In this document: positions 1 to 16,821 of the stretch, piece after piece
How the letters are laid out: each line of letters begins with the position of its first letter
Numbering within the stretch: the stretch's first letter is position 1
Assembly (NCBI GenBank): GCA_963809895.1
Contig: CAWELD010000003.1
Location: 3,232,001-3,296,000 of the forward strand
Length of the DNA: 64,000 bases
Reading direction: 5' to 3'
Source of the DNA: an uncultured Gemmatimonadales bacterium
GTDB taxonomy: Bacteria > Gemmatimonadota > Gemmatimonadetes > Longimicrobiales > Gaopeijiaceae
Notes under the pieces: generated by a model
What the model was told of the DNA's origin: nothing
The model's input: only the letters and a program-made list of their open reading frames with translations
The model's database searches: none
Translations under genes and position numbers: made by a program

Positions 1-680
1 CCCACGCCTTGCACCTGCGTGAGCACCCTCGTCTCCGGATAGTTCGTGCGCGCCAGCTCCTCGATCCAGCGATCCATCTCTCTGATCTGCGACGTGAGCT
101 CGGCGATCGTGTCGAGGACCGGGAGCAACGCCGCGTACAGCGGTTCGGGGATATCCTCCTCGACCTTCCAGTGGAAGCTCTCCGTCGAGCAGGGCGGCAA
201 CCGACCACCCATCGCCTTGACGGTCGAGCGCATGTGATTGACCAGCGCCGTCCGGGCCTCGACCAGGGCGCTCCGGGACCGGATCACCGCCAGGTCCGCC
301 TGCGCGTCCTCGCTCCGGTGGATGACCGGTGCCAGTAGCTTCGGATCGAGCCGTCCGACCCGAGCCAGGTACTCGGCATCGGCGCGGTCGCTCTTCTGAT
401 CGTTCTCGTAGATGAACCGGAGCTTGCGAGGATTGGCGACGATCACCTCGTGGCCCAGGCCGTGGAGCAGCCGACTGATCCACGGCGAGTGGGGCCCCAC
501 CTCGAGAACCACCCGCGTCGGCTCCTCGCGCTCGAACCGACGGGTCAGCGCCGGCGCCGAGGTCGAGAGCCGCGATTCCTCGACCACCTCGCCCGACGCG
601 TCCACCACGCACAGGTGACTCACTCGGTCGCTCACGTCCAATCCGATTGTCCGCTCCGGTGCCTTCGCCGTATCTTGCAT
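1..680 (-). CDS. IS110-family (DEDD) transposase, 5' part; runs off the window start
   Basis: Manual minus-strand translation from ATG at 680 (RBS GGAGG upstream): MQDTAKAPERTIGLDVSDRVSHLCVVDASGEVV...VVLEVGPHSPW...VANPRKLRFI...KSDRADAEYLAR. This gives the DEDD RuvC-like catalytic pattern. Absent from the ORF track because it is open at the edge. Confidence 0.9.
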   Translation of the reverse strand, partial: MQDTAKAPERTIGLDVSDRVSHLCVVDASGEVVEESRLSTSAPALTRRFEREEPTRVVLEVGPHSPWISRLLHGLGHEVIVANPRKLRFIYENDQKSDRADAEYLARVGRLDPKLLAPVIHRSEDAQADLAVIRSRSALVEARTALVNHMRSTVKAMGGRLPPCSTESFHWKVEEDIPEPLYAALLPVLDTIAELTSQIREMDRWIEELARTNYPETRVLTQVQGV

Positions 681-682
681 TC

Positions 683-780
683 GGCCAACCTCCGTGCCTT
701 GGGCTTCGAGCCCGCTTCTAGTTTGGGGCGCCCGAAAGGGTAACCCCGACTCCGCCGGGGGTTGGCCTTCTCATTTCATC
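683..780 (-). ncRNA. Candidate IS110 bridge-RNA-like structured leader
   Basis: GGCCAACC (683-690) and GGTTGGCC (760-767) close a stem that contains sub-hairpins GGGCTTCGAGCCC and CCC-GAAA-GGG. IS110 elements are known to encode guide RNAs in non-coding ends. Confidence 0.45.
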
Positions 781-793
781 CCACGAGCAGCTG

Positions 794-838
794 GAAGACC
801 CTGGCGGAGCGGGCGGCACTCAGCGTCACCTGCGAGTG
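794..838 (+). repeat. Conserved intergenic motif copy A (CTGGC-N20-TCACCTGCGA), promoter-like
   Basis: Near-identical to 30689-30733 (3 mismatches in 45 bp). Lies ~40 bp upstream of the first cassette G|TT site. Confidence 0.8.
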
Positions 839-1052
839 AGCGGTTGGGACGGGGGCCGGTTCGGAGGCCCTAGAACGTTATCAGCCATTGCCCGGACGAG
901 AGGATCGCGGGAGCGTGAGTGAGGCATGCTGCGCGCCGCGCGCCTCTGGCCGGGTGCGGCCCGGAGGTCGAGGATCTTGCGAGCATGAGTGCCCGGAGCA
1001 AGTGTTGGCGAACGAGGAGGGCCCTCCCGAGCGAGTGAGGGGTAATCAAAGC

Positions 1053-1280
1053 ATGAACTACCGAGACCGAATCACCATCGAACCAGGCAAGCGGAGCGGC
1101 AAGCCGTGTATCCGTGGCATGCGGATCACGGTTTCGGACGTGCTCGACTACCTGGCGTCCGGGATGACGGAGGACGAGATCCTGGCGGAGTTCCCAGATC
1201 TCGAGAAGGACGACATCAAGGCGGCTCTTGCGTTCGCAGCGGACCGGGAGCGTCGGTTGATGTCGGTGCCTCCAGCATGA
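1053..1280 (+). CDS. DUF433 family antitoxin
   Basis: MNYRDRITIEPGKRSGKPCIRGMRITVSDVLDYLASG...DIKAALAFAA is a classic DUF433 sequence. Confidence 0.92.
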   Translation: MNYRDRITIEPGKRSGKPCIRGMRITVSDVLDYLASGMTEDEILAEFPDLEKDDIKAALAFAADRERRLMSVPPA

Positions 1281-1284
1281 TCCT

Positions 1285-1617
1285 GTGAAGCTCCTTTTCG
1301 ATCAGAATCTCGCTCCCCGCTTGGCTCGCGATCTCGCCGACATCTTCCCGGGCTCGGTGCACGTTCGTGGCCTGGGAATGGCACAGGCCTCGGATCGACA
1401 GATCTGGGATCACGCGAGAGAGGAGGGCTTCGTGATCGTGTCGAAGGACAACGACTTCCAGCAAATGAGCTTCGTATTCGGCGCTCCGCCGAAGGTCATC
1501 TGGATCCGCCGCGGGAACTGCAGTGTGGAAGAATCCGCAGGGGTCCTGCGGGAGAACGCAGCTCGGATAGGCGAGTTCGAGATCGATCAAGTGGCTACCT
1601 ACCTTGTCCTGTCCTGA
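1285..1617 (+). CDS. DUF5615 PIN-like toxin (VapC45-like)
   Basis: MKLLFDQNL...D..IW..A....IVSKDNDF...GAPPKVIWIR; directly follows DUF433. Confidence 0.9.
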   Translation: MKLLFDQNLAPRLARDLADIFPGSVHVRGLGMAQASDRQIWDHAREEGFVIVSKDNDFQQMSFVFGAPPKVIWIRRGNCSVEESAGVLRENAARIGEFEIDQVATYLVLS

Positions 1618-1630
1618 CAGACGGCAACGG

Positions 1631-1734
1631 CTGATAACAGGCTGGGTTGCCACTCGCGTCGGCCTGCGGCCGGTGCGGCCCTTCGGGACACCCGCCCCGC
1701 GGGCGGGCGTCGGGAACCGCCGGAACGTTATCTG
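1631..1734 (+). repeat. attC-like recombination site 1
   Basis: R'' CTGATAAC lies 14 bp after the stop codon and R' GTTATCT at 1727. Inner pairing GGTT(G)CC/GGAACC has one extrahelical base. R'' is complementary to the cassette start GTTATCAG at 877. Confidence 0.75.
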
Positions 1735-1790
1735 AAGCTGGCTTCGCAACCCCCACTCACGCGTCGCGACGGGAACTGACTCGGAGGCTC

Positions 1791-1819
1791 TGGCGTAAGT
1801 ATACCAGTATCGGTATACT
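1791..1819 (+). promoter_or_regulatory. Sigma70-like promoter with palindromic operator for the TA operon (probably leaderless mRNA)
   Basis: TGGCGT-N17-TATACT; inverted repeat AGTATACC/GGTATACT (1798-1819); ATG 6 nt after the -10. Confidence 0.7.
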
Positions 1820-1824
1820 CGTTC

Positions 1825-2193
1825 ATGAGTGACGCGACGCCCAAGCCGGTGTTCTGGCTCGGATCGGCCCGATCGGACCTACGCTCGTTCCCGGAGGAGG
1901 TCCGCACGGACGTGGGCTTCGCCCTCTGGGTGGCACAACGGGGTGGACGGCCCGCCCAAGCGAAGACGCTCAAGGGAATCGTCTCCGGTGCGGGCGTGCT
2001 CGAGCTGGTCGAGCGCCACGACGGGGACACCTATCGGGTGGTGTACACAGTACGGTTCGCGGATGCCGTGTACGTACTCCACGCATTCCAGAAGAAGTCG
2101 AAGCGCGGAATCAAGACGCCGAAGCATGAGATCGACCTGATTCGGTCGCGGCTCAAGGCCGCGGAAGAGCACTACGGTGGGAGCGGACGATGA
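1825..2193 (+). CDS. RelE/HigB (Gp49-like) toxin
   Basis: W.GSARSDLRSFP...GDTYRVVYTVRF..AVYVLHAFQKKSK.GIKTP. Confidence 0.9.
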   Translation: MSDATPKPVFWLGSARSDLRSFPEEVRTDVGFALWVAQRGGRPAQAKTLKGIVSGAGVLELVERHDGDTYRVVYTVRFADAVYVLHAFQKKSKRGIKTPKHEIDLIRSRLKAAEEHYGGSGR

Positions 2194-2519
2194 CCAAGGA
2201 CCAGATCGAGGAGAGTTCGGGGAACGTATTCGCGGACCTAGGTCTCGCCGAGGCGGAAGAACTCCATACAAAGGCTCAGCTTGCGCATCGGATCGGCGAG
2301 ATCGTTCGCGGTCGCCACCTCACGCAGGCCGAGGCTGCGGACGTGCTTGGTGCGACGCAGCCGATCGTCTCGAGGCTGATGCGTGGCCAGCTGCACGGAT
2401 TCTCGCTAGAGCGTCTCATGCGGTTCCTCAACGCTCTGGACCGCGACGTTGAGATCGTGGTCCGGCGCCGGCCACGGAGTCGAGATCACGGCGAGACACG
2501 GGTGAAGGTCACCGGCTGA
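2190..2519 (+). CDS. HigA-like XRE/HTH antitoxin
   Basis: SSGNVFADLGL...LTQAEAA..LG.TQP.VS.L..G....FSLERL; ATGA overlap with the toxin. Confidence 0.9.
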   Translation: MTKDQIEESSGNVFADLGLAEAEELHTKAQLAHRIGEIVRGRHLTQAEAADVLGATQPIVSRLMRGQLHGFSLERLMRFLNALDRDVEIVVRRRPRSRDHGETRVKVTG

Positions 2520-2610
2520 CCCGTCGAGTAACGACAGTCACCCGCTTGGAGAGACGCCCGAGTTGGGTTCGTTTCAGCCGCTCTGGTTCTCCGACCAGCG
2601 AAGCCATCAA

Positions 2611-2703
2611 CAGATAACTCCAGGCTCCCGGCTCCGCACCGCTGAACGCGGCGCTCCGTCCCAACTGGCCTCGGCCGTCTCTCCGGTGAGCCTCATGTTG
2701 TCC
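2611..2703 (+). repeat. attC-like recombination site 2
   Basis: R'' CAGATAAC is complementary to the cassette start GTTATCTG (1727). Stem AGGCTC-CCGG / CCGG(T)GAGCCT; R' GTTGTCC at 2697. Confidence 0.75.
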
Positions 2704-2717
2704 GGGAGGGCTGAGCC

Positions 2718-2948
2718 ATGAACGACGAGTCTACAAAGGATGAGGTGGTCGAGGAGTTGAACCGATTGGCCGAAGCCGATCGGCGTCGGGTCCTGGACTA
2801 CGCTCGTTCACTCGGCCGCCGCGTCTCGAAGGGCGTGGCCGGCGACTCACTTCTGTCGTTGGCTGGGTCGTTACCAGAGGCGGAGGCATCGGCCATGGAG
2901 GCGGCCATTGAGGATGGGTGTGAGCGAGTGAACCTCGGTGCCTGCTAG
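2718..2948 (+). CDS. Putative antitoxin (VapB-like)
   Basis: Small ORF with RBS, overlapping a downstream PIN gene. Confidence 0.7.
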   Translation: MNDESTKDEVVEELNRLAEADRRRVLDYARSLGRRVSKGVAGDSLLSLAGSLPEAEASAMEAAIEDGCERVNLGAC

Positions 2949-3324
2949 GGCACTTCTCGATACGAGTGCTGTCGTCGGGCTCCTGCGCGGCGATACGTCT
3001 GCAGTAAAGAAGGTCTGATCTCTGGACGAGGCATTCACGAGCATCGTGGTAATCGGCGACTCCTTTACGGAGCTCGCCTCTCGACGGGTGCAGAAACGAA
3101 CCTGGCGCTGGTTGCCTCGTTTGCGTCGTCGATCACCGTCCTCGCCTGCGACCGCGTGACGGCGGAAGCGTACGCACGTCTGAAGCATGGCCTGCGAGCC
3201 AAGGGGCGTCCGATCCCGGATAACGACCTATGGATCGCGGCCACGGCGGCGCGAGCGTGGTGACCCTCATCTCACGCGACGCGCACTTCGTGGTATCGAG
3301 GAACTCGGCCACGAGTCCGTGTAG
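2938..3324 (+). pseudogene. VapC PIN toxin, multiply frameshifted
   Basis: ALLDTSAVV... and LRAKGRPIPDNDLWIAATA...LISRDAHF lie in different frames. Confidence 0.8.
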
Positions 3325-3471
3325 GCCTCGAGCTTCATAAACGGGACGTTACGCGAAAACCGACACCGACCGGAGAGACGTGGCGTTCAGGAGTCGAACG
3401 CTGCAGCGTAGGGTATGGGGTGAAGGTCGGAACTGGGTGGGCTCGCGCCAACTGGTTGATTTGGAGGACGG

Positions 3472-3700
3472 ATGTCGGAGCGAATCGTCTCGGACCCTGA
3501 GATTATGCTTGGTAAGCCCGTGGTCCGTGGCACTCGGATCACGGTGAGAGCATCGTCGAGCGACTCGGAGCCGGCGAATCGGTTCAGGCGATCGTCGATG
3601 CCCATCTACGCCTCACGCGACAAGACGTCCTCGCTGCGATCGCCTTTGCTGCTGAGGCACCAAGTCGGTGGGTGCATACCGGATTTCCACCGGCGCCGCG
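3472..3700 (+). pseudogene. Second DUF433 antitoxin, frameshifted
   Basis: MSERIVSDPEIMLGKPVVRGTRITV followed by frame breaks. Confidence 0.8.
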
Positions 3701-3920
3701 TGAAGCTCCTCTGCGACGAGGGAGTCGAACGCCATATCGTCGACGCTCTGCGCTCGTCCGCTCACGAGGTCACCTACGTTGCCGAGATCGCTCCAGCATC
3801 CCAGCGGAGGTCCTCCGGCGGGCCGCCGAGCGGGAGGCCATCCTGGTCACCTCTGACAAGGACTTCGGTGAACTCGTCTACCGGCAGGGACGAGCGCACG
3901 CAGGTATTGTCCTGCGGGAC
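3700..3920 (+). pseudogene. Second DUF5615 PIN-like toxin, frameshifted and truncated
   Basis: MKLLCDEGV...HEVTYVAE / EVLRRAAEREAILVTSDKDFGELVYRQG. Confidence 0.8.
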
Positions 3921-4175
3921 TGGGATGGAGTCCGAGCGCTCTTCTACCCGAGCGCCCTTCTTCATAGCGAACTGACCTTGCCGGACAGGAGCCACCAGTC
4001 CGGGACTTGGACGGCTCTCCGGACTCTGATCCCGTGGGGCGCGGCATCAATGCCGTACATCTTCTGCGCCGGGACGGGGCGTGGCGCATCACCGGCCTCA
4101 TCTTCCAGATGGAGAGAGGCACGGCCGGGATTCCAGATCGCTACCTCTGACCTGCGGGTACCTGGACACGGGCCG

Positions 4176-4244
4176 CCGTAACGGATAGGCGAGGCGAGGG
4201 GGAGGAACTCGTTGCGAACTCCGGTTCGCGCGCACACGTTGGCC
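4176..4244 (+). repeat. Possible degenerate attC site
   Basis: CCGTAAC ... GTTGGCC; R'' partly matches GTTACG at 3348; inner pairing is weak. Confidence 0.3.
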
Positions 4245-4335
4245 GGGCTCAGTAATCCCGATCGTCCGTCCGGCTGGACGCCGCAGCCAATGGAGAGAGG
4301 CCATTCGTAGATCGTATCGTTCGATCCTGATCCTG

Positions 4336-5001
4336 GTGATGGGGCTGAGTCCGGCCGTGGTGCTTCCAGCGCGGGCCAATGCTCAGGCCGCAGAGCGGAA
4401 TGCCGCGATCGTAGAGCATTGGGTCAACCAGTCCTTGGCTGGCGACCTTTCCGGAGCGGACACCCTCCTCGCTGCGCACGTCACGTTGCACGCCGTCCCC
4501 GGCACGACCACGAGGACTCGTCGCGCCTTCCTCGATTTCCTCAGCAACGGTGTTGCGGAGGGCGGCAGGCTTCAGGTTAGCCAGATCGAGGTGTTCGGAG
4601 AGGGCGACGAGGTTTGTGTCCTGTATTCGGCTGACGGCCATGACGGTCCGGTGAGCGCGGTCCGGTTCTATCGTGTCGTGGATGAGCGAATTGCCGAAGC
4701 CTGGTGGGGGCCATCGGCTGAAGTACGCTGGTCTTGGGACAACGAGCTCAATGGTGACCTCGATGTCCAAGCGAACCGGCAGGTCCTGGCCCGCTGGTAC
4801 GAGGACGTCTACGCTGAGGGGGACTGGCAGCTGGTTCCTGACCTCGTTGGCCCGACCTTCCTGCGCCATGAGGACCGGGAGTTCTCCAGGGCCCGGAAGA
4901 GTACCGTGACCGTCTCAGCCGCATGTTTGGAAGCTGCTCTGAGGCTCAGGTATGAAGTAGTGGGGACACGACAAGGTCGCCGTCATCGGGAGAGTACCTG
5001 A
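4336..5001 (+). CDS. SnoaL/NTF2-like domain protein, likely frameshifted at the 3' end
   Basis: Repeated N..IV..W / N..VL.RWYEDVY..GD...V.DL pattern. Confidence 0.5.
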   Translation: MMGLSPAVVLPARANAQAAERNAAIVEHWVNQSLAGDLSGADTLLAAHVTLHAVPGTTTRTRRAFLDFLSNGVAEGGRLQVSQIEVFGEGDEVCVLYSADGHDGPVSAVRFYRVVDERIAEAWWGPSAEVRWSWDNELNGDLDVQANRQVLARWYEDVYAEGDWQLVPDLVGPTFLRHEDREFSRARKSTVTVSAACLEAALRLRYEVVGTRQGRRHREST

Positions 5002-5250
5002 TGGGAGGGGGTTCCTTCAGGCCTGGCGCGTTCGTGACGGCCGCCTTGTGGAGAGTTGGTGGGCGCCGGGTCTTGCTGAATGGTGAACCTCGTGCGGGGC
5101 GGCCATCGCTGGCACCGCCTGACCAGGGTTTCAGCCTCACGGCGGAGGCCGGAGGGTCGGCTGGTTGTTCGGCTTGCACCTACAACCGCCGCTGCGCATG
5201 TTGCTCCCGCGCGTTGAACCCCAAGTCTTCAGGCGGCGGAGGACGTCGAC

Positions 5251-5714
5251 TTGAGTGCCGAGAACAAGAAGGATTCGCGCTGGCTCGAGATCCTTGGAGT
5301 GGTCACCGTCATCGTGTCCGTTCTGTTGCTCGCATGGGAAATCCGGCAGAACACGCAGACGGCAACGGCTCAGGCGATGCTCGACCTCAACACGATGGCG
5401 AACGAAGTGCTGAGTGCTGAAGCCCAGAGCGCGCAGTTGGCTGCGGTGCTGGTGAAAGGAGAGGAAGATCTGGGTTCCCTGTCACCGGTGGAGTACCGGC
5501 AGTTTCAATCCCACGTATATGCGTCGATAAATGCAATCAAGGCTGCACACGGCTTCTTCACTCAGGGTATCCTGGACGAAGAAGACTTTTCAGGGTGGAG
5601 GACTATACCTGCCCCTACCTGGGCGGTTCCTCCGTCAATGCGATATAGGAGTCTTTCAAGCCCACATGGGGGACTGAGTTTGTAGCCTTCGTGGAGGAGA
5701 CCTGCGGGCTTTGA
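5251..5714 (+). pseudogene. Hypothetical membrane-anchored protein (E-I-R-Q-N-T family), paralog 1, 3' frameshift
   Basis: WLEILGVVTVIVSVLLLAWEIRQNT. Confidence 0.6.
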
Positions 5715-5874
5715 TCGCGGCGAACTAGGTACCAGCGCCGCCTGACCATGGAGAACCCGCCGGCTGGGGACATCCAGCGGCTGCTGCCGTCCTCCCTCGA
5801 GCCAGAGCTCGCTACGAGTCGAAACCACTCGCTCTGACGCCCCGCTAGGCGGCACAATCCAATGAGATTCCCCC

Positions 5875-6340
5875 ATGACGAAGCGGAACCTGTCCGAATC
5901 GCTGCACCTGCTCGCCAACCTGGGCGTCATCGCCAGCATCGTGTTCCTCGGCGTCGAACTCAGCAGAACAACCAGCTGATGGAGATGGAGGCGCGAGCGA
6001 CCCTCACGGAAAACCTGCAGGACGGCTGGTACCAGCTGTCCAGCGATCCGGGCCTCACGGAGTTGTTCATCAAGGACCGGAGCGGCCAGGAGCTGTCCGA
6101 GGCTGACGAAATGCGTCTCAACGCCTACTGGATGGGGATGCTGCTGCGCCGCGAGTGGCAGCACGAGCATTTTCCCGACGCCGTGACGGCATGGCCGGCC
6201 TGCAACGCCTCTTTTCGACCTACGGCTCCCTGCGCCGGGCATGGGGTGGCACCAACAGCGCCTCGCGTGGGGCGGGCAAGGACAACTTCTCTCCGGAGTT
6301 CGTGCGTTTCATCGAGACAGAGATCCTGCCCGCGTCCTGA
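5875..6340 (+). pseudogene. Same family, paralog 2, frameshifted
   Basis: MTKRNLSESLHLLANLGVIASIVFLGVEL/QNNQLM, split across frames. Confidence 0.6.
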
Positions 6341-6387
6341 GCAGTGGAGACCTTCTTCAGTCAAGACCAGCCGGAGGTGACCGGGCG

Positions 6388-6848
6388 ATGGCAATAGGGA
6401 TGACAGGATGGAAGGAAGTGATAGCAGCTCTCGGAGTCGTCCTCTCACTCGTGTTTGTCGGCTTCGAGGTTCGGCAGAACACGAGGGATCCCAGGCTACG
6501 GTACGCAATGATCTGGCTACGGCATCTCGGGAGTACCTGCTCGCGCAGGCGACAAGCCCTGAGTTGAGCGCCGCCTACGAACTCTGGCTCAGCGGTGGAG
6601 AGATAGCCCGGTTCAAGACCGGATGGTGATGACCTCCACCATGGCCTTGATTCGCAACATCGAGAACGTCTTCCTCCAAGCGGAATTGAGGAGCATCAGA
6701 CTCTGACGTTGTCGGGTCGTTTGAGCCATGAGAGCCCCGATCTTTCAGTCTGAGAAGTTTCGACAGTTCTGGGAATCAGGGACCAGGGGCAGCGTAGACC
6801 CCGGATTCGCGGAGGCCTTTGGTACGGCGAACGGGTATTAGGGCCTGA
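6388..6848 (+). pseudogene. Same family, paralog 3, frameshifted
   Basis: WKEVIAALGVVLSLVFVGFEVRQNT followed by frame breaks. Confidence 0.55.
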
Positions 6849-6860
6849 AAGGGAGACCTG

Positions 6861-7625
6861 GTGGCGAATTCTGCTCACACACATCGACGAGGGCACCCTC
6901 TGCTGGTCGAGGGCATCGTCATTCTTGCCAGTATTCTGGTGGCTTTCTGGTTGGATGGATGGCGTGCAGACCGTGAAATGGATCGCGATCTCACCCAGGA
7001 GTTGGAAAGCGTCTACCGCGAGGTCCAACGGAACCGGGACCTGGTGGTCGCCGAGTTGATCGTCCTCAACCGACTCACGGCGAGCGCGGATGCGCTGTTG
7101 GCTGACCTCAGCGCCAGCCCACGATCATCGACGATGGCGGTCACGGATTCGATCGCCTGGCTCGCAACGTCCTGGTCCGCGACCATCGATCCTTCACTGG
7201 GCGCCGTGCAAGCCATGATCGACTCGGGCCGGCTGGCCCAGGTCCCCAACCCCCGGCTCCGGCAGGGCCTCGCGGGGCTGAGGGATCAGTTCGAGGACGC
7301 CGTCGAAGAGGAGGTGTTGGCCCGCGAGGTATTCAGCAATCAGATATTTCCGCTGACTCGGGACCGCTTGGACTATCAAGCCTTCGGCGCACTCTTGCCG
7401 CAGCTCCTGGGACCAGCGAGTGGCGGCAGGCTGAGTCAGGAGAGCTTGTCCAAGCGGTCGTTTCCCACCCAAGGAACGATCGAGTACCCGAACAGCCCTG
7501 CCATTCGCAATGCCTTGGAGTTGAGGAGGGAATGGAACGTCGCGGCTCAAGATGAGATGGCCCAGCTGAAGATCGTCCTGAATGAACTTCTTACGGCCCT
7601 GGAAGACGAGTTGGCGGATCAATGA
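6861..7625 (+). CDS. Hypothetical N-terminally anchored helical protein (DUF6090-like)
   Basis: LLVEGIVILASILVAFWLDGW; paralogs at 12569, 14186 and 61883. Confidence 0.7.
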   Translation: MANSAHTHRRGHPLLVEGIVILASILVAFWLDGWRADREMDRDLTQELESVYREVQRNRDLVVAELIVLNRLTASADALLADLSASPRSSTMAVTDSIAWLATSWSATIDPSLGAVQAMIDSGRLAQVPNPRLRQGLAGLRDQFEDAVEEEVLAREVFSNQIFPLTRDRLDYQAFGALLPQLLGPASGGRLSQESLSKRSFPTQGTIEYPNSPAIRNALELRREWNVAAQDEMAQLKIVLNELLTALEDELADQ

Positions 7626-7650
7626 TCTTTCCCGTCGCACAGATTTCGGC

Positions 7651-7717
7651 TCTCCAACAAGTTTTCGCGGCTCTGGCGCCGGACGTTGCAGGTGAATGTT
7701 CGAACATGCCGTTGGAA
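7651..7717 (+). repeat. attC-like site
   Basis: TCTCCAAC 26 bp after a stop codon, GTTGGAA at 7711; 67 bp in total; short TTCG/CGAA inner pairing. Confidence 0.5.
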
Positions 7718-7755
7718 AGACATCGGGGTGGGCACTTCGGCTGGGTGGACGTGAC

Positions 7756-8506
7756 ATGAAACCGGAACTGGGCCTCGGACGATGGGCAGGCGGAGCGGCG
7801 ACGGCTGTTGCGCTGGTCATGACCGGCTGTCAGGCCGGAGGCGATGGGCCAAGAGAACCCGAATCGACCGCCCTCGACCTGGTTCTGGAGCCGGTGACAG
7901 TAATCGGTGAGATCGAGGGGCCGGCGGACTACGTGTTTGGAGATGTGCGTGCCGTTGCGGTCGACGATCAGGGCCACGTCTACGTAGGAGCCCGGATCGG
8001 AGCAACGGTTCGGGTCTACTCAGCGCGAGGGGAGTTCATCACCGGCGGAGCTGTCTAGCGACACGCTGATGGTGCCATACTACGCGGGGATGGAGGCGCA
8101 GCGCACGGCGTTCGATCTCATCGGGCAGTCGAACGGCCGCATCGTCGAGGGACTGAGCCACATGCCGTTCGCAGCTGTTCCCACGTGGGACGTATCCGGC
8201 CGAGGAACGGTCCTTAGCACGGACGGAGACAGTGGTGACCTCTTGGAGTCGACCTTTGGAGGCGACACCGTCGGCGTCCTGGCGTTGGCGAGCAGCCCCC
8301 GCCGCCCCATCCCCCCGGCGGAGCGCGCCGACAGCCTGAAGGCCTTGGAGGCCCGCATCGATTCGCTTCCCGTCCCGCTGGACGAGGTCGTGAACCTCGG
8401 GAGGGGTGTCGCTGATCGGCATCTCCCGGAGTTCCTCCCGACGACGGTATCCTTGCGGGTCGCGACAGGTGGCCTGATTTGGGTAGAGCGGTGGCCCCAA
8501 CATTGA
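7756..8506 (+). pseudogene. 6-bladed beta-propeller lipoprotein, internally deleted or broken
   Basis: Signal peptide ending LVMTGC, then IGEIEGPADYVFGDVRAVAVDDQG; C-terminal part is in a separate ORF (8069-8506). Confidence 0.65.
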
Positions 8507-8518
8507 GGCTCCGACGTC

Positions 8519-8642
8519 TTCCAACACGGTGCCGAGAGACTCGCGCGGTAGGTAGGTGGGCTGCATGTGCCTCTTGAACTCATATGCCCCGTACCAGATT
8601 TCGAAAACAGCTTGGTGAAGTGCGGCAAGCGTGCCGTTTCCT
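8519..8642 (+). repeat. Possible attC site closing the 7711 cassette
   Basis: TTCCAAC R'' with extended complementarity to 7711-7726; candidate R' GTT at 8636; TGCCG/CGGCA pairing. Confidence 0.35.
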
Positions 8643-8656
8643 CAGGGAGCTATCCG

Positions 8657-9826
8657 ATGACCGCCCCGAACCAGATCGTGCTGCTGATCGCGCTCGGCTC
8701 CGTGTGCGCGACGCCCGCCATCGCTCAGCAATCCACCGGAGAGAGGGCGAGAGATCTCGGCATTCCGCTCAATGGGACGCCCGGGTCACACAACGCCATT
8801 ACGGATGTGCCCGGCGTTGAGGTCGGCTATTCGACCGTTGTCAAAGGAACGGGCGCCTGGCGAATCGGCGAAGGACCTATTCGGACAGGTGTGACGGTCG
8901 TTTTGCCACGAGGGAAGACGGAGGGCTCCTACAACGTCGGTCAATTCGTGTTCAATGGCGACGGCGAGATGACCGGCGTCCCGTACATCCAGGACTATGG
9001 CCGGGCTGGAGGCCCCATAGGCATTACCAACACCAACAGTGTCGGCGTTGTCAGGGATGCAATCGGGGAGTGGATGTACAGGAGGTTTGCTTCCAACGGT
9101 CCGATGGATTTCTCATTCGGCTTGCCCATCGTCGGCGAGACCTGGGACGGCGGACTCAACGACATCAATGGCCACCACGTCAAGCGGGAACACGTATTCG
9201 AGGCGATCGATGGCGCCGCGGGTGGGCCTATCGCCGAGGGCAATGTAGGTGGGGGGACGGGGATGACCTGCTATTGGTTCAAGTGCGGAACCGGCACGTC
9301 GTCCCGGGTGCTACGGATCGGCACGAGGGACTATACCGTTGGTGTGCTTGTGCAGGCGAACTTCGGCAGACGGGACGATCTCGTCATCGCCGGCGTACCG
9401 GTCGGGAAGGAGATCACCGACTTCGACATGGTGGGGGCACCGGAGCAGGACGGGTCCATCATCATCGTGATCGGGACCGACGCACCTCTGACTTCGTCAC
9501 AGTTGAATCTCGTTGCAAGACGGGCAACGCTAGGGATGGGGCGCACGGGAACAATCGGCGACAGCCGATCCGGCGATATCTTCCTCGCGTTCTCGACGAA
9601 TACCGGGCAATACGATGAGGCGACCGACATCATCTCGGCCGATCGGCTGTCCACAGCAGGACTCAGTCAGGTGTTTCGCGCTACCGTGGAGGCAACAGAA
9701 GAGGCAATCATCAACGCCCTCGTTGCTGCCAAGGACATGGAGGGAATCAACGGGAACAAGGCATTCGCGATTCCACACGACAGGTTGCGAGAAGTAATGA
9801 GGATGTACAACCGACTGACACCATAG
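8657..9826 (+). CDS. dmpA: P1 family (DmpA) L-aminopeptidase/D-esterase with signal peptide
   Basis: RARDLGI...NAITDVPGVEVG...EGNVGGGTGM...QANFG...DGSIIIVIGTDAPL (Gly-Ser autocleavage site)...SGDIFLAFST. Confidence 0.9.
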   Translation: MTAPNQIVLLIALGSVCATPAIAQQSTGERARDLGIPLNGTPGSHNAITDVPGVEVGYSTVVKGTGAWRIGEGPIRTGVTVVLPRGKTEGSYNVGQFVFNGDGEMTGVPYIQDYGRAGGPIGITNTNSVGVVRDAIGEWMYRRFASNGPMDFSFGLPIVGETWDGGLNDINGHHVKREHVFEAIDGAAGGPIAEGNVGGGTGMTCYWFKCGTGTSSRVLRIGTRDYTVGVLVQANFGRRDDLVIAGVPVGKEITDFDMVGAPEQDGSIIIVIGTDAPLTSSQLNLVARRATLGMGRTGTIGDSRSGDIFLAFSTNTGQYDEATDIISADRLSTAGLSQVFRATVEATEEAIINALVAAKDMEGINGNKAFAIPHDRLREVMRMYNRLTP

Positions 9827-9965
9827 GCCGCTGTTCGCCAGGCTATTGCCTCATCTCGGGCCTACTACTGCCCCTGGGGCTCGAGAGGTCGCGAAGGGAA
9901 GTGAGGGCCGCTTCGTAGATCCTAGATGTGGACCCCATAGCACAGCTTCCTGGAGCATCTCTTTG

Positions 9966-10433
9966 ATGCACCGCCCCGTGGACCCGGACTCGCCTCGACA
10001 CAATGATGAACAGACGTTGATCCGACGTGCCCTACGGCTGGGCGCCTGGCCTGTGGTAATCGCCCTGTTCATCACTCCGATTCGCTTCTTCCTCGAATTG
10101 GCAGGCGTCCCGACGGTCTACGTGTTCCTGCTCGGACTGCTCTGGTTGTCGTTGGGGCTCTCAATCTACTGGGGCTTCAGATTGTCCGCCGAACCCCATC
10201 CGTACCGGCTCCTTTGGTTGAGTCTCGCGTTCTTCTCACCCCCTTCCAGGTTTCCGGTGTTCCTGCTCTGGTGGATTACCACCACCTGGGGGCTTGGCAC
10301 CCACTACAACATCTTTGACAGCTGGGACCAAGCGCTCGTCGGGCAGCTCTTCTACGGGTCCCTACTCCAGATCATCCCCGGTGGCTTGCTGGGTTCACTG
10401 ACGCTCGCTATCAGACGGGCAAGAACTGCGTGA
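9966..10433 (+). CDS. Hypothetical membrane protein
   Basis: About four hydrophobic segments. Confidence 0.65.
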   Translation: MHRPVDPDSPRHNDEQTLIRRALRLGAWPVVIALFITPIRFFLELAGVPTVYVFLLGLLWLSLGLSIYWGFRLSAEPHPYRLLWLSLAFFSPPSRFPVFLLWWITTTWGLGTHYNIFDSWDQALVGQLFYGSLLQIIPGGLLGSLTLAIRRARTA

Positions 10434-10500
10434 GGCCGTCCTCATGCGTTACTTGACCAGGTGTATCCTATTGGCAATAGCCGGGCGGGTGCGGCCTCGG

Positions 10501-10575
10501 GTCACTCAGGCTTCCGGCTCCGCGCCGCTGAACGCGCGCTCTGTCCCAATTCGCTACGCGGAAATACGCCTCATG
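10501..10575 (+). repeat. Degenerate (dead) copy of attC site 2
   Basis: 10507-10549 matches 2621-2664 at 40/44 positions and also ends in GCCTCATG, but AAC has become CAC and GTT is lost. Confidence 0.7.
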
Positions 10576-10663
10576 GCGCGAAGTGGGTCGGGTCGCCACT
10601 TTCCCTTCCGTGAGGGTTCTTGACGATGAGGTCAGAAGCAACGGATGGGCAGAGTGGTAGGAC

Positions 10664-11392
10664 ATGACTCGGAATAGGTTTCGCTTTCTATCCCGCGGTA
10701 CGGCCACGATGGCCTTGACTGCGTTCTTGGGGTTGAGTCCTCGCTCGCTTTCCAGTCAGAACGCGGTGAGGGATTCGACCTGGACGGCGTTGATCCTTTA
10801 CAACCGAACTTTGGTGAGTTCGTTTGCCGCTGCGATGCGAGCTGTCCGCAGTGCTGATTCGCTCCTCGCGATCGCCGCTGGGAAAGACGTCCAAAGCCCC
10901 TCTGATTCCGTGGGGATGTGGGTGGCCCGAGTCGTAGAACCGCCATTGACCGACTTTCGCCCCTATAGCCGCTTCGTGAGCGACGACATTCTGAATGCGA
11001 TTGTCGACGACTCGCTCCTTCTCGCCGCCCGGACTCACCTCGTGAGGTCGTCCTCGGACATTGAGGCCAAGAATCGCCTTGTTCTCGATTATCTGAGCTC
11101 GTTCCAAGATTCGGGGATGTCCGCGCGCCTGGGGTGGCAGGGTACCACCCGAGACCCACGAGAACGGACCATCACGCGAGCGCAGATTGCAGAGGACCGG
11201 GAGTTCGTCAGGTTTGTTCGCGATCTCCGCGTGATTCTGTTGGATCTCGCTCGCACCGCAGGGAGTGCGGCGCGGGAAGGGGGGGGCGTTGGCGGCGGCC
11301 TTCGAACGAGCCTTCGGGCACAGACGGCACGGCGGGCGAGGCATTCATGCTCTACTTTGACGAGCGTACCGTCTCGAGGAAGTTCGACGTGA
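10664..11392 (+). CDS. Hypothetical secreted protein; 3' end probably disrupted
   Basis: Signal-like N-terminus; the tail overlaps the next gene fragment. Confidence 0.45.
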   Translation: MTRNRFRFLSRGTATMALTAFLGLSPRSLSSQNAVRDSTWTALILYNRTLVSSFAAAMRAVRSADSLLAIAAGKDVQSPSDSVGMWVARVVEPPLTDFRPYSRFVSDDILNAIVDDSLLLAARTHLVRSSSDIEAKNRLVLDYLSSFQDSGMSARLGWQGTTRDPRERTITRAQIAEDREFVRFVRDLRVILLDLARTAGSAAREGGGVGGGLRTSLRAQTARRARHSCSTLTSVPSRGSST

Positions 11393-11562
11393 ACCTGCGA
11401 GGCAACGTGCTGAAGTGGTGGCGTGATGATGCCGCATTCTCACAGCGCTTTGTGGGTACGATCAGCGAGGACGGCAACGCAATCGTCTGGAAAGGGGAGA
11501 TGTCGCGGGGCGGCTCACCCTGGGAAGACGACTTGGAGCTGACCTACACGAGGGTGCGTTGA
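11347..11562 (+). pseudogene. 3' fragment of a conserved hypothetical beta-rich protein
   Basis: MLYFDERTVSR...FSQRFVGTISEDG...WEDDLELTYTR. Confidence 0.5.
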
Positions 11563-11584
11563 GAGAAAGAGGCAGGCCAGCGGG

Positions 11585-11647
11585 AACGACCAGCTCGAAG
11601 CAGCGATCGAGTTCTACACCGCGACGTTTCCGAACTCCGAAGTACGC
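11585..11647 (+). pseudogene. Tiny remnant of a PhnB/VOC-family gene
   Basis: NDQLEAAIEFYTATFPNSEVR, with no start codon or continuation. Confidence 0.5.
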
Positions 11648-11750
11648 ACCGGCGCCCGCACCTGACGGGTCAGGGCTGGCCCTTGCATGCGCGGGCGCCG
11701 GTGAACCCGGGCGGTCCGTCTGAGAGCGGTTCCCAATGGAGGCAAGCAGG

Positions 11751-12255
11751 ATGCATCCGGCTGACGATCAGGTAGCGAAGGTCTTGCACTGGATCAGCGA
11801 TGTCTTCGCCCGGGCCGGCGCACAGTATCAAGTCGTAGGTGGACTCGCCGCGCGTGCGTATGGGGCGACTCGTCCTCTCGTCGACCTCGACTTCTACGTC
11901 TCGAGCTCGAGACATGCCCCGAGTATTGGTAACTGTGGGCGACTCCTGCGTGTGGGGGCCCGAGCACTTCAGGGACGAAAACTGGGATCTGACCTTCGCC
12001 AAGCTCGAGAAGAACGGTGTGCAGATTGAGGTGGCCGAAGCAGAAGGGGCTCGGTTCTACAGCCCGAGTGCCGGCCGATGGCTAGACCAGAACATCGCAT
12101 TCCATGACTCCGATAGGAGGGTGATTCTCGGAGTGGAGATGGAGGTCATGCCAAAGGATCAGCTCGTCGAGTACAAGAGAGCTTTGAATCGACCGGTGGA
12201 CCGATTGGACCTCAGCGAGATTCTTGGAATGAGGTTGAACGAGAGGCACGAGTAA
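11751..12255 (+). pseudogene. Nucleotidyltransferase-fold protein, frameshifted
   Basis: VVGGLAARAYGATRPLVDLDFYV (GG...DxD motif), continued in another frame. Confidence 0.7.
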
Positions 12256-12568
12256 GGCGGTCGGGGAGGATCCCCGTCCGTGAACTGGGGATTCATGATG
12301 ACAGCACAGGCTTCGGGATCGGGGTCGTCCTTTTCGCATGGGCTCCGACCGCCGCTCTCCGCGCACGTGTCCGAGAGCTGGAAAGCCGACTCGGTAGCTC
12401 GTGACAGGGGTCACCTGGCCGCTCGTGGCGGTCGCCTACCAAGCGATCGCCGGTCAGCCCACGGCTACTTGCAGCAACACAAATTCTGGCATACTACGTT
12501 GAGGCCACGCCGTCTGCCGCATCCGCGGCGGGTCCACGGACAAGCCAGAGAACCTCTACCACGCGCCG

Positions 12569-13319
12569 ATGGCCGCCGAGACCTCCCGCAGGCAGCGTTG
12601 GATCAAGCTCGGCCTCGAGTCCGCTGCCGTCTTGCTGAGCATCCTGACCGCGTTCGCGATCGACGCTGGCTGGGACCACCACACTGCCCGCCAGGATGAG
12701 CAGGCGGCGCTCGCCAGACTGCTCGACGAGTTCGAGGCCAACCAGGAAGAACTGGAGGCAGTCCGAGCGGGCCATCAGATCCTGCACGACAACGGGGTTC
12801 AACTTCTCCGGGTCGCGTACGGCCTCAGTCAGCCAGCGAGGAATCCCCCGAGCAACTTCGCCGTGTGCTCGGAATGTCGATCTACTTCGACCCGAGCATG
12901 GGGGCTCTGAACCGATTCCTTGCGAGCGACGAGACGGGAAACGTGGCCGGCCCCGAGCTTCTCGATCGGCTCGCGGGCTATCCCGCGAAGGTGGACGAGC
13001 TCTGGCAACAAGAACGGATGCTGCGGGAGATGATCGCTAGCTCATCGACCCCTTTGTCGTTCAATCCGCAGACCGACTCGTCCTCCTGCCCCCTGCCACG
13101 TCGTCGGAAGACCTGCAGAGCCTTCGAACTGAGGTGCCCCGTCAGGTAGACACCGAGATGCTCATGTCGCTCCTCGCGCAGCGCGAACTCCGCAACCTCA
13201 TCACGACACGGGTCATCCTCGAAGCACAATCGCTGATGAAATACGAGGTCGTGGCGGCCGAGTTCGACGCGATCTTGACCGAACTCCGCAGGATCGCGGG
13301 GACGGGTGAGCATCCCTAG
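12569..13319 (+). pseudogene. DUF6090-like anchored protein, frameshifted in three pieces
   Basis: LGLESAAVLLSILTAFAIDAGW; ORFs at 12569, 12865 and 13134. Confidence 0.65.
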
Positions 13320-13397
13320 ATCCTCCTCTCGCTCGGGAGCCTGCCAGATGGGGAATTCGCGACTGCGGACAGAAGTCTCAGCGCGCGGTAATCGTAG

Positions 13398-14129
13398 GTG
13401 GTGCATGCAAGCTCTCCTACAGAAAGTGACTCATGCGTGATTGGTCTGATCCTTCTGGCCGTGTCCTTCGTCCTGCTGCGGCTCGAAGGGAAGAGTCTCA
13501 GGTCTATCGGACTCGACAAGCCGGCCCAACGCTCCCGGGAGTTTCTGGTCGGGCTCCTCGCCGCCGCACTGGTGGTGGTCGTTCAGCAGCTGGGCCTCGC
13601 CATCTCAGTCGGAACGAGCTGGACCGTAAACCCGGCGTTTGATGCTTCGCTGGGACTCGAACTCCTCAGGCTGAACGTCAATTCAGTCCTGTTCGAGGAG
13701 CTCATGTTCCGCGGGTACCTCCTCCTTCTTGCGATCCGGTACCTGGGTACCCGCCGAGCGGTCGTGGCGGACGCCGTACTCTTCGGGATCTATCACTGGT
13801 TCAGCTACGGCGTAGTCGGCGACCCCGTCTCGATGTTCTTCGTCTTCATACTGACCGCGTCGGCTGGCATGATGTTCGCGACGGCGTTCGCGGCGACCGA
13901 ATCCGTCATTGCCCCGATCTCGCTGCACCTCGGATGGAATCTGACGAGCTACGGCGTGTTCTCTGGTGGCCCGTGGGGCCCGGGGCTGCTGCTCCCGTCT
14001 GATGGCTCGGTGCCATTGCAGGCGGATAGCGCGACGGGATTGCTTCTGAGCCTGGTCTTGCCGATCGGATTTGCGGTTGGCACGACACTGTTTCTGCGTC
14101 GCTTCGCGCTCCGTGGTCGACTACCTTGA
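13398..14129 (+). CDS. CPBP/Abi family intramembrane glutamic endopeptidase
   Basis: EELMFRG, FGIYHW and LHLGWN motifs. Confidence 0.88.
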   Translation: MVHASSPTESDSCVIGLILLAVSFVLLRLEGKSLRSIGLDKPAQRSREFLVGLLAAALVVVVQQLGLAISVGTSWTVNPAFDASLGLELLRLNVNSVLFEELMFRGYLLLLAIRYLGTRRAVVADAVLFGIYHWFSYGVVGDPVSMFFVFILTASAGMMFATAFAATESVIAPISLHLGWNLTSYGVFSGGPWGPGLLLPSDGSVPLQADSATGLLLSLVLPIGFAVGTTLFLRRFALRGRLP

Positions 14130-14185
14130 CCCCCGAAACGTGCATCGGCACCAGATCTTCCTCTCATTCGGGATCCCCGTAGACC

Positions 14186-14881
14186 GTGCGAGCCCCATCC
14201 CACTGGAAGCGAATTCTCGCGGAGTTCCTGGCGATCTTCGCTGGCGTCGTACTGGGCCTGTTGGCCGACGATTGGCGCGAGGCCCGGCAGGACAGGGAGC
14301 GGGAATCGTTCGCACTCCAGGAGATCCTCGCCGACCTGAAGGGAGATTCTGCGGAGCTGGCATCCTTCGATCGCCAGGCGAGAGACTGGAACTCGGCCGG
14401 GCTTTGGGTTGCGAAGCATCGTGGGGTATCCGTTCCCGCAGATTCGGTGGTCAACGCCATCCGTCCGGTCTACTTCACCTACGTGTATCGGCCTCAGCAC
14501 GCAGCGTATGTCGGGCTACGTGACGCAGGGGAGCTGGACCTCATCCGCGATCGAGCGTTGCGTCGCCAGTTGGTGGATTACTTCGAGACGCAACAGCCAT
14601 ACGCCGAATCCCTGTATCAACGAACGAACGAGATGTACTTCGACGCGGGAAAGGCCACCCGAGCGTACTTCAGATTGACCGTGACAGCGGATGCCCAGTC
14701 CCTGCGAGGCGACACGGGTCTGGAACTCCTGCGACCCTGGTTGGACGCGTCTCGAGACCAGGAGTTCACCGCAGCGGTGATCATGCTCGGGGTGGGCGGC
14801 GCGACGGTGGCACTCAGGCTCCCGGATGTGCGGAAGGCTAACGCTTCGCTGATGGCGGCGATTGCAGAACACATCCGGTGA
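14186..14881 (+). CDS. DUF6090-like anchored protein
   Basis: ILAEFLAIFAGVVLGLLADDW...YVGLRDAGELDLIRDRALR. Confidence 0.72.
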   Translation: MRAPSHWKRILAEFLAIFAGVVLGLLADDWREARQDRERESFALQEILADLKGDSAELASFDRQARDWNSAGLWVAKHRGVSVPADSVVNAIRPVYFTYVYRPQHAAYVGLRDAGELDLIRDRALRRQLVDYFETQQPYAESLYQRTNEMYFDAGKATRAYFRLTVTADAQSLRGDTGLELLRPWLDASRDQEFTAAVIMLGVGGATVALRLPDVRKANASLMAAIAEHIR

Positions 14882-14975
14882 TCATCGAGCGGAATGAGAG
14901 AGGGTGCGCTCAGGAACGGCACCGCCCGCGGATGATGTGAACGGCGCGGGGTACCGCGTACGAAGAGGAGGGGGT

Positions 14976-15506
14976 ATGGCCAGGCTCGTGTTCGGAATGA
15001 ATCAGTCGCTGGACGGCTACGTCGACCATACGGGCTTTGCACCGGGGCCGACGCTCTTCCGGCACTTCGTCGAAGAGGCTCAGGGACAGGCGGGCAGCGT
15101 GTACGGTCGCCGGATCTACGAGATCATGCGCTACTGGGACGACGATCATCCCGAATGGGATGCCGACGAATACGCCTTCGCGGAGGCGTGGCGGGACCAG
15201 CCGAAATGGGTCGTCTCGCGCACGTTGAAGTCCGTCGGCCCCAACGCCACGCTCATCGGGGACGACCTGGAGAGCGCGATTCGCAGGATCAAGGCCGAGC
15301 GCGATGGAGAGATCGAGGTCGCGGGTCCGGCCTTGGCGCACAGTCTCACCCAGCTCGGCTTGATCGACGAATACCGCATCTACCTGCACCCCGTCGTCCT
15401 CGGGCACGGCAAGCCGTATTTCGCCGGACCCCGGCCGCGCCTCCGCCTCGTGACCCATGATCGGATTGGCGAGGACGTGATCCGGCTGACCTACGTTCCT
15501 GCTTGA
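14976..15506 (+). CDS. Dihydrofolate reductase family (RibD C-terminal) protein
   Basis: MNQSLDGY...YGRRIYE...GLIDEYRIYLHPVVLGHGKPYF. Confidence 0.9.
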   Translation: MARLVFGMNQSLDGYVDHTGFAPGPTLFRHFVEEAQGQAGSVYGRRIYEIMRYWDDDHPEWDADEYAFAEAWRDQPKWVVSRTLKSVGPNATLIGDDLESAIRRIKAERDGEIEVAGPALAHSLTQLGLIDEYRIYLHPVVLGHGKPYFAGPRPRLRLVTHDRIGEDVIRLTYVPA

Positions 15507-15615
15507 TCGCATCGACCGAGGACACCCGGCATGGTCGCGGGGCACCAATCCCCCCGGATGCGCAGGTCGCACCTCGAGGCTACGATGGGGCGTCCTTCTG
15601 CCTGAACCCTGAGGG

Positions 15616-16221
15616 GTGTGCTTGGACCAATTCGAATACGTCATGGTCCTGGTGTCGATCATCATCGGCCTCGGGATCGCACACCAGCTTCTTGGTCTCG
15701 CTGGGGTCGTGGACCGCGTTGCCGGGGGCAAGAATCCGCTCGGTCTGAGCGTCGCCTACTTCTCCTGGCTCGGCGTCGTGTTCTTGTGGACCGTCACCTT
15801 CTGGTGGTGGGAATTCCGGTTCACCGAGTTCGTGACGGAATGGACGATCGGCCTGTACTTCTTCCTCGTGGTCTACGCCGTGGTGCTCTTCCTGCTGGCG
15901 GCGATTCTGGTTCCTCAGACCTGGGATGGAGTCGCCGAGCTCAATCAGTATTTCCTCGAGAGGAGGGCCTGGTTCTACTCCCTGCTGCTGCTGGCCAACA
16001 GCCTGGATATCCTCGACTCCTATTTGAAGGGGGGGATGGGAAATCTGATTGCGACACCTCCTGTGACCTATGCGATGTGGGGCTCGTTGGCGGTGGCCGG
16101 CGTCGTGGGACTGCGCGCCAAGTCCATCCGTGTACACAAGGTTCTGGGGCTGATGGTTCTCGCGTTGCAGGTCCTGTCGGCCTTCGAAGCGCTGCCGAAG
16201 CTCGGGCAGCTGAACGGTTAG
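15616..16221 (+). CDS. Hypothetical multi-pass membrane protein
   Basis: FEYVMVLVSIIIGLGI...FWWWEF; about six TM segments. Confidence 0.75.
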   Translation: MCLDQFEYVMVLVSIIIGLGIAHQLLGLAGVVDRVAGGKNPLGLSVAYFSWLGVVFLWTVTFWWWEFRFTEFVTEWTIGLYFFLVVYAVVLFLLAAILVPQTWDGVAELNQYFLERRAWFYSLLLLANSLDILDSYLKGGMGNLIATPPVTYAMWGSLAVAGVVGLRAKSIRVHKVLGLMVLALQVLSAFEALPKLGQLNG

Positions 16222-16261
16222 ATAGAGAAGCTTGTGTCCCCTTCCGGCTGTGGAGGAATCG

Positions 16262-16708
16262 ATGCGGCCCCGACATCACGTTACGCTGTTCACGGTTGCG
16301 GCCGTCTTGGGCCTGAGTCCCAGTCTCGTGGCCGGGCAGGCCCGCCGATACGTGGAACCGGTTATGGCGGGCGACACGGCCAGCCTTCCGTTCAGCGACG
16401 CCGTCCTGGTCGGCAACACGCTCTACGTCGGCGGTACGGTGGGCCGCCTGCGTCAACAGGTACCCGAGACCGCTGCCGAGGAGGCCCGCGCTCTCATGGA
16501 GTACTTGCAGGAGACCCTGGCGGACGCCGACATGACCATGGACGACCTGGTCATGGTGCAGGTGTTCTGCTCGGACTTATCCGCATATGCCGATTTCAAC
16601 CGGGTCTACCGCACATTCTTCACGAGAGAGGTTCCGCCACGAGCGTTCGTTGGGGCGGAACTCCTGGGTGGCCGGTTCGAGGTCACAGCCATCGCAGTGA
16701 AGCGGTGA
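16262..16708 (+). CDS. RidA/YjgF family protein with signal peptide
   Basis: PFSDAVLVGNTLYVGG...FNRVY..FF...PPRAFVG...EVTAIAV. Confidence 0.88.
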   Translation: MRPRHHVTLFTVAAVLGLSPSLVAGQARRYVEPVMAGDTASLPFSDAVLVGNTLYVGGTVGRLRQQVPETAAEEARALMEYLQETLADADMTMDDLVMVQVFCSDLSAYADFNRVYRTFFTREVPPRAFVGAELLGGRFEVTAIAVKR

Positions 16709-16821
16709 TGCCGGAGAGCCGGTCACGCCAGCGACCAGGGGTCGCGCGGCGGTTCCTGATGGTCTGTCCGGCACGTGTTCTCAGGCAGATCTCGCTGTGT
16801 TCGAACCTCCCCCGCCGCCTC

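Follow-up and report, generated by a model that had tools for sequence, protein, structure and literature searches.

A stretch of 64,000 nucleotides from an uncultured Gemmatimonadales bacterium (the window, C3:3232001-3296000, where C3 is contig CAWELD010000003.1; unprefixed positions are in window numbering) opens within an array of gene cassettes. This array is headed, 20 kb upstream, by an intact gene for a 367-aa tyrosine recombinase that lacks the I2 insertion of the integron integrase IntI, and its recombination sites are built differently from those of a canonical integron that the same genome carries on contig C10. We consider it likely that the array is of a sedentary, integron-like kind, that its distal part in the window is eroding, and that the 367-aa enzyme shuffles cassettes on folded single strands and inserts them at an entry site. 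An earlier note made from the letters of the window had described an integrase-less array front-loaded with toxin-antitoxin modules. No intI is indeed present in the window, but the array is not without a recombinase of its own.

The window continues an array that begins upstream

The link between the two parts is a single attC-like site split by an insertion sequence (IS) of the IS1111 type (Table 1). The element extends upstream beyond the window edge, and the left half of the split site is found at C3:3231262-3231319, 737 bases ahead of the window (left-half profile E 1e-6). The two halves rejoin into the sequence of an intact site. Because this site straddles the window edge, the window and the upstream region are parts of one array. 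The IS encodes a DEDD transposase and has, at 764-774, an 11-bp subterminal inverted repeat that bears extensions of 7 and 3 bases; subterminal inverted repeats with such extensions are described for IS1111 ends (PMC11187229).

From the entry-site candidate, 19 kb upstream of the split site, into the window, 21 junctions were listed by script and by eye, all on one strand, and up to position 4238 successive junctions are never more than 2.5 kb apart. The cassette at 877 ranks about 17th in the array. Further toxin-antitoxin cassettes are about the 11th, 12th and 14th, so that these cassettes cluster in the distal half and are not front-loaded. A region of 1.9 kb around the entry-site candidate showed no promoter- or terminator-like site.

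Cassette ends and duplicates point to shuffling

The start of a cassette tends to be complementary to its own end. The two instances reported in the earlier note were located as described: GTTATCAG at 877 is complementary to CTGATAAC at 1631, with a full match of 10 bases (877-886 with 1629-1638), and GTTATCTG at 1727 is complementary to CAGATAAC at 2611 over 8 bases (1727-1734 with 2611-2618). The chance level for an own-end match 300-1500 nt downstream, taken over the whole window, is 1/599 GTT sites for 10 bases and 12/599 for 8 bases. Along the array, at least 5 further complementary bases join the two ends in 13 of the 17 cassettes for which both ends were located. Own-end matches sum to 73, compared with 43.7 for permuted partners, and none of 100000 permutations was as high (p<1e-5). 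The mean match run is 4.8 for the ends of one cassette versus 1.5 for the two ends of one site.

Two toxin-antitoxin cassettes reappear upstream in a different order, and the duplicated cassettes, which diverge by 2-3%, have different neighbours. A 98% copy of the HigBA-like cassette, at C3:3227267-3228220, starts at the crossover and lies between different neighbours, and homologs of this cassette lie in arrays of the same site type in two relatives (G015 and G002) and adjoin the recombinase in a third (G006). The cassette at 878 has an 86% similar copy in run X3, placed after a different site of the same type. Given this HigBA copy and these homologs, the fixed synteny with the same flanks that the earlier note had named as evidence against its reading is not what we find. 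Its broader view, a sedentary cassette array joined by site-specific recombination at G|TT, agrees with both the own-end matches and the reordered duplicates.

The duplicates also bear on whether the window part could be a separate fossil cluster merely adjacent to the upstream array, or an assembly artefact. Sites past 2681 are mostly eroded or missing, no public contig spans the region, and the assembly is error-prone, 25 random 10-kb bins of the contig averaging about 3.8 apparent frame switches each. Nevertheless, the rejoining of the split site, together with duplicates that differ in sequence and in neighbours, unlike a collapsed repeat, makes this explanation very improbable.

Two site types are almost fully segregated within one genome

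A search of the genome for an IntI carrying I2, as the earlier note had proposed, was successful: contig C10 encodes an intact canonical IntI (388 bits, TIGR02249). That enzyme, however, has its own array, which is of another site type. We compared 13 of the approximately 25 C10 sites with 24 C3-type sites: 12 complete ones in the C3 array and a further 12 in four relatives. Sites were picked with a detector permitting bulges on either arm and by eye; a loose scan for AAC/GTT hairpins was swamped by background, and tests of the L stem and with profiles took its place.

Base 9 after AAC corresponds in position to the extrahelical G16 (PMC2727003), and looping it out gives better pairing in 12/13 C10 sites and in 1/24 C3-type sites. 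The bottom-strand stem branches after a median of 13 pairs in C3-type sites versus 31 in C10 sites. C3-type sites are 94 to 170 bases long, with a 7-8-base spacer before R', and at the crossover GTT is all that partner sites have in common. In the L stem of C3-type sites, 82 of 98 pairs are preserved across 14 distinct sequences, compared with 49 when partners are shuffled; as the pairing of this stem persists while the sequence changes, the substrate would be a folded single strand. IntI-type attC chemistry, the source of the sites according to the earlier note, fits poorly with C3-type sites that have no extrahelical base in the L box. The C10 sites retain this base and have a 9-base spacer before R'. 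Textbook attC sites have a shorter spacer there.

Half-site profiles trained without the window sites placed 15 of 15 C3-type left halves in the C3 array, on one strand, and 0 in the C10 array. Conversely, 25 of 27 IntI-type sites are on C10, the others being at C3:653 kb and in the decayed site of the window (5119-5227). The two site types are almost fully segregated within one genome. The site at C3:653 kb belongs to a secondary location (C3:652777-653539), a 98.8% copy of a toxin-antitoxin-like cassette of C10 with its IntI-type site. Within the C10 array, IS110-family elements sit in two sites.

The recombinase lacks I2 and may carry a HARP-like domain

The 367-aa recombinase combines PF13495 (SAM_4, as in IntI) with PF00589, and all six catalytic residues are present (R222, K247, H313, R316, H339 and Y348). 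It scores 210 bits against TIGR02249 in two pieces, under the cut-off of 265, and is above the cut-off of NF040815. The I2 insertion is absent: about 40 residues of VchIntIA are unmatched, and the same gap appears against the genome's own C10 IntI. A quick tree of 69 rows places 50 short enzymes together with 6 IntI on one side of a branch with support 100, apart from XerC/XerD; the IntI rows all come from relatives, one IntI with a stop was excluded, and the order within the side of short enzymes and IntI is not resolved. The possibility that the enzyme is the host XerC or XerD was ruled out, as the XerC-like and XerD-like proteins of this genome are encoded by other genes, which fall in the separate XerC and XerD clades. 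By sequence, the closest named relative of the recombinase appears to fit the Gemmatimonadota host that the earlier note had suggested.

The best solved relative by sequence is the archaeal XerA, and this, the score for NF040815, the lack of I2 and of an extrahelical base, and a folding energy without strand preference would all suit a short recombinase that builds the array by double-stranded Xer-like exchange with two strand exchanges, the hairpins being binding-site symmetry, terminators or REP-like (repetitive extragenic palindromic) elements. Standard Y-recombinases, however, require spacer homology (PMC2727003), which partner sites of such different lengths sharing only GTT do not offer, and the L stems covary. 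We therefore hold a Xer-like exchange to be unlikely.

Residues 11-86 are modelled as a domain of their own, with five strands and two helices; this is how the HARP topology is described (PMC4666394), and it is the likeness to the HARP of SMARCAL1 and to T4 UvsW. The likeness was first spotted by eye. The PF07443 (HARP) cut-off is passed by one of six homologs; at E<=0.05, 10 of 40 aligned N-terminal domains match PF07443 and 14 of 40 match DUF5710. The best PDB match of the domain profile is SMARCAL1 HARP, at E 0.053. Several results count against the likeness. The recombinase itself has no Pfam match above cut-off for this domain (DUF5710, E 0.12), and scores in the fold comparison are low (UvsW N-terminus, Z 5.1, root-mean-square deviation 4.6, 62 aligned; SMARCAL1 HARP, Z 3.6), with unrelated rows reaching scores equal to these. 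Foldseek with the N-terminal model gave no match at E<=0.001, and in a protein search with residues 10-95 none of the 120 candidates scored. It is on weak evidence that we call the domain HARP-like. Unlike in SMARCAL1 and UvsW, it is fused to a recombinase and not to a translocase, and its DNA binding is a prediction.

Enzyme and sites tend to occur together in relatives and distant homologs

Among 40 relatives, the short recombinase is found in 15 and IntI in 8. At least 5 C3-type sites occur in 9/15 relatives with the recombinase versus 1/25 without; the first figure becomes 5/11 once the four training genomes are dropped, and related genomes are not independent. One relative assembled as a single contig (G015) has the recombinase and 16 C3-type sites, together with one weak IntI-type site and no IntI found, and another (G038) has the recombinase and 12 C3-type sites, with no IntI-type site and no IntI found.

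We then considered distant homologs, taking the best 80 of 588 loci, from Bacteroidota, Bacillota, archaea and others. Hairpins of the form TAAC-GTTR number 107 in 294 kb downstream of the gene (3.6/10 kb) versus 48 in 614 kb upstream (0.8); as the detector is strand-symmetric, this gives enrichment and not orientation. Of the 13 loci with a located first site, 9 have an entry site that matches the first cassette end at a distance of 30-260 bases behind the gene, compared with 758 bases for the candidate in the C3 array. About 10 bases ahead of G|TT, homolog entry sites (L012, L017, L019, L031, L089, L111 and L114) contain a short inverted repeat, and the entry site, too, may be a small hairpin.

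A number of observations weigh against a shuffling enzyme that is dedicated to the C3 array and acts on folded strands. Recombination activity is inferred from sequence, and there were no circle junctions among the joints of four runs, all of whose contigs come from other strains. Bottom-strand folding, a check suggested in the earlier note, was equivocal: the only complete site of the window, a divergent one, folds no better than shuffles (z -1.15), and the bottom strand is the more stable in 13/24 C3-type sites, which does not determine the strand. The window site is also unmatched by the half-site profiles, its type being assigned by register only. One relative (G003) has no site in about 18 kb behind the recombinase, and another (G022) has only weak ones. 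Four relatives without a found IntI have 20, 8, 8 and 8 IntI-type sites; as such sites stand without a found IntI, arrays outlast enzymes and the association of enzyme and site at the level of genomes is loose.

To these must be added the points that favour the C10 IntI as the enzyme moving the C3 cassettes in trans, in which case the array would be a true cluster of attC sites lacking integron-integrase (CALIN) and the short recombinase a bystander or relic. An intact IntI with I2 is encoded in the genome, one IntI-type site lies within the C3 array, one gene family is common to both arrays, and IntI1 still recombines sites without extrahelical bases (PMC2727003). Furthermore, one relative (G008) has IntI and 33 C3-type sites, and the short recombinase was not found in its 40-contig assembly. 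However, this relative also has 10 IntI-type sites, and its C3-type arrays (contigs C22, C29 and C42) start at contig ends. The segregation of the two site types, the same pairing of short enzyme and array in relatives without a found IntI, and the matching entry sites behind the short recombinase all argue against action in trans, and we give it little credence.

Cassettes and remnants of the window

Table 1. Features of the window, of the upstream part of the array and of the C10 integron.
Feature	Position	Strand	Remark
IS1111-type element (IS110 family transposase, start codon 680)	1..781	-	inserted in attC-like site; PF01548 E 6e-20
Right half of IS-split site (L' + R')	782..883	+	crossover G|TT at 877; right-half profile E 0.003
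Intact cassette, DUF433 (1053-1280) + DUF5615 PIN-like (1285-1617)	878..1727	+	
Sole complete attC-like site of the window	1632..1733	+	divergent; no L-box bulge, AAC before GTT, branched interior
Intact HigBA-like cassette, Gp49/DUF891 (1825-2193), HTH_37 (2190-2519)	1728..2681	+	with left site half (2612-2681)
VapBC-like cassette, antitoxin 2718-2948, PIN gene from 2938	2682..3348	+	joined to truncated site by deletion
Second DUF433 + DUF5615 cassette	3349..4238	+	frameshifted in present assembly; degenerate site 4176-4244
SnoaL-like gene, probable former cassette	4239..5118	+	
Decayed canonical-IntI-type attC	5117..5234	+	both R boxes mutated; 80-82% to C10-array sites; profile E 5e-8, 5e-10
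Cassette-like co-oriented genes without recognisable sites	5235..10489	+	includes membrane proteins
Peptidase S58 gene	8567-9826	+	
Gene whose paralog forms a cassette of the C10 array	9846-10433	+	73%
Remnant of a left half-site, of the array's own type	10490..10561	+	84% to upstream site; weak profile E 0.32, 0.005
Paralog of upstream cassette gene	11736..12255	+	78%; site gone
367-aa tyrosine recombinase gene	C3:3211291-3212394	+	same strand as cassettes
attI-like entry-site candidate	C3:3213152		matches first cassette end
C10 integron	C10:600921 to about 641000 (L092/L093)		IntI co-oriented with about 25 sites; many toxin-antitoxin cassettes

The window has four toxin-antitoxin-type gene pairs, the number given in the earlier note: DUF433+DUF5615 twice, Gp49/HigB+HTH_37, and a VapBC-like pair assigned through a 97% paralog upstream that matches PIN. 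The third and fourth modules are, however, disrupted in the present assembly, with frameshifts and a stop in the VapBC-like PIN gene. Over the fourth module, from 3348, the alignment with a contig of run X3 that is 93% similar shows single-base indel differences. Given these indels and a background of 3.8 frame switches per 10-kb bin, decay and sequencing error are indistinguishable in both modules, and we do not claim them as pseudogenes.

The earlier note has a hairpin follow each intact cassette, but only one site in 877-10575 is complete; the others are halves or remnants. The site behind the HigBA-like cassette is cut by a deletion at 2681, and the upstream copy continues into a full site. 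The VapBC-like cassette terminates in a hairpin-less junction (3336-3354). The GTTGTCC at 2697, previously taken for an R' box, is not one: it lies inside the leader of the VapBC-like cassette, and the upstream paralog with the same leader starts at another GTT. The paralog at 11736 indicates that the eroded tail extends beyond 10575. Deeper in the window, interior pieces of the site family without R or L boxes lie ahead of genes (18778-18835, 19883-19920 and 30689-30743), and cassette-like genes keep a shared orientation to about 32 kb. Rfam gave 0 matches on window positions 1-20000, and is not known to have an attC family.

Further cargo of the upstream array

A cassette of 312-318 bases without a convincing gene is present in three copies, 83-91% alike (L009:1152-1470, 1626-1939 and 6252-6564, from C3:3213152). 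Two of the copies stand first in the array, and the RNA fold has a z of -3.2. No real match turned up in 150 genomes of the order, and the cassette is possibly a structured RNA or a promoter cassette. At two hairpin-less junctions (L009:11820-11842 and 15246-15265) the entry site's AGGAG spacer comes after the cassette end, as in delta-attI cassettes. A second IS-like element (L009:2517-4012) has subterminal inverted repeats and is inserted in a site precisely at its G|TT crossover; the element's long open reading frame has no Pfam family in the scanned frame. Defence-like cargo (L009:6773-14232) comprises a kinase-TPR gene, a DUF5131 pair (PADLOC PDC-M30/M41) and an OLD-like ATPase-TOPRIM gene. 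A lone site of the array's type lies far off on the minus strand (L094:8600-12000, C3:1891600-1895000), behind reverse-transcriptase-like and small membrane-protein genes and ahead of a restriction-enzyme-like gene, as labelled by eye.

Proposed mechanism and relation to known systems

We propose that the 367-aa recombinase, rather than the C10 IntI, would excise cassettes as circles and insert them at the entry site through exchange at G|TT. Older cassettes would be displaced outward, where their sites decay or take IS insertions. Most speculatively, the unequal spacer and a three-way junction beside the L stem might set the choice of strand and block a second exchange, with the HARP-like domain reading the junction in place of I2 and extrahelical bases. 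Toxin-antitoxin cassettes are known to stabilise sedentary integrons and would probably slow the loss of the distal array.

The C3 array resembles a sedentary chromosomal integron (VchIntIA, PDB 2a3v; TIGR02249) in having a recombinase, a candidate entry site, co-oriented AAC...GTT cassettes and chimeric sites, with toxin-antitoxin and defence-like cargo. It also shares hairpin-less junctions like those of delta-attI cassettes (PMC12901181) and IS1111-type insertions into sites (PMC11187229). It differs from such integrons in lacking I2 and the extrahelical base of the L box, in its extra N-terminal domain, and in a stem that branches after about 13 pairs and a 7-8-base spacer before R'. The recombinase is also co-oriented with the cassettes, a difference that the C10 IntI shares. 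IntI is defined by I2, its additional domain (PMC9668308, PMC4889954), and because the C3 array has neither I2 nor extrahelical bases we have not filed it as a canonical integron.

By definition, a CALIN is a cluster of attC sites with no integron-integrase (PMC4889954). The C3 array, with at least two attC-like sites and no gene for an IntI-specific domain nearby, has the appearance of one, but the cluster is headed by an intact array-specific recombinase that lies inside the 4-kb chaining rule (PMC4889954), and the CALIN label suggested in the earlier note is accordingly withdrawn. Applied by a tool that requires IntI domains, this label would hide the C3 enzyme. The catalytic domain without I2 is shared with XerA and XerCD, and in CTX-phage integration XerCD is able to act on a folded single strand that has no extrahelical bases (PMC4792948). 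In contrast to Xer proteins, the C3 enzyme stands at an array of variable cassettes and carries the SAM_4 domain of IntI; the host XerC and XerD are separate genes.

We found no printed description of such an I2-less array class in a literature search that had most subscription journals, and supplements, outside its scope, and the accessible portions of PMC8618304 and PMC8352920 do not cover it. The locus contributes a measured contrast of two site types within one genome. As a tentative and rather less probable extension, the array may represent a second, widespread kind of integron, in which an I2-less recombinase reads the three-way junction of bulge-free sites through its HARP-like domain. 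This kind would be sister or ancestral to IntI systems, orthogonal to the classical integron in the same cell, and an explanation for part of the 'integrase-less' arrays.

I2 and extrahelical bases are held to have co-evolved and to be necessary for integron chemistry, and their origin has been described as a chicken-egg paradox (PMC4792948). An array that shuffles without either would be a missing intermediate or an independent solution, and the presence of both enzyme-site pairs in one genome allows a direct comparison of the two systems. Tools that require IntI domains would label such arrays integrase-less or overlook them. The frequency of CALINs in genomes without intI is unexplained (PMC4889954), and arrays of the C3 type bear on these clusters as well as on the spread of gene cassettes in Bacteroidota, Bacillota and the other phyla that carry homologs of the recombinase.

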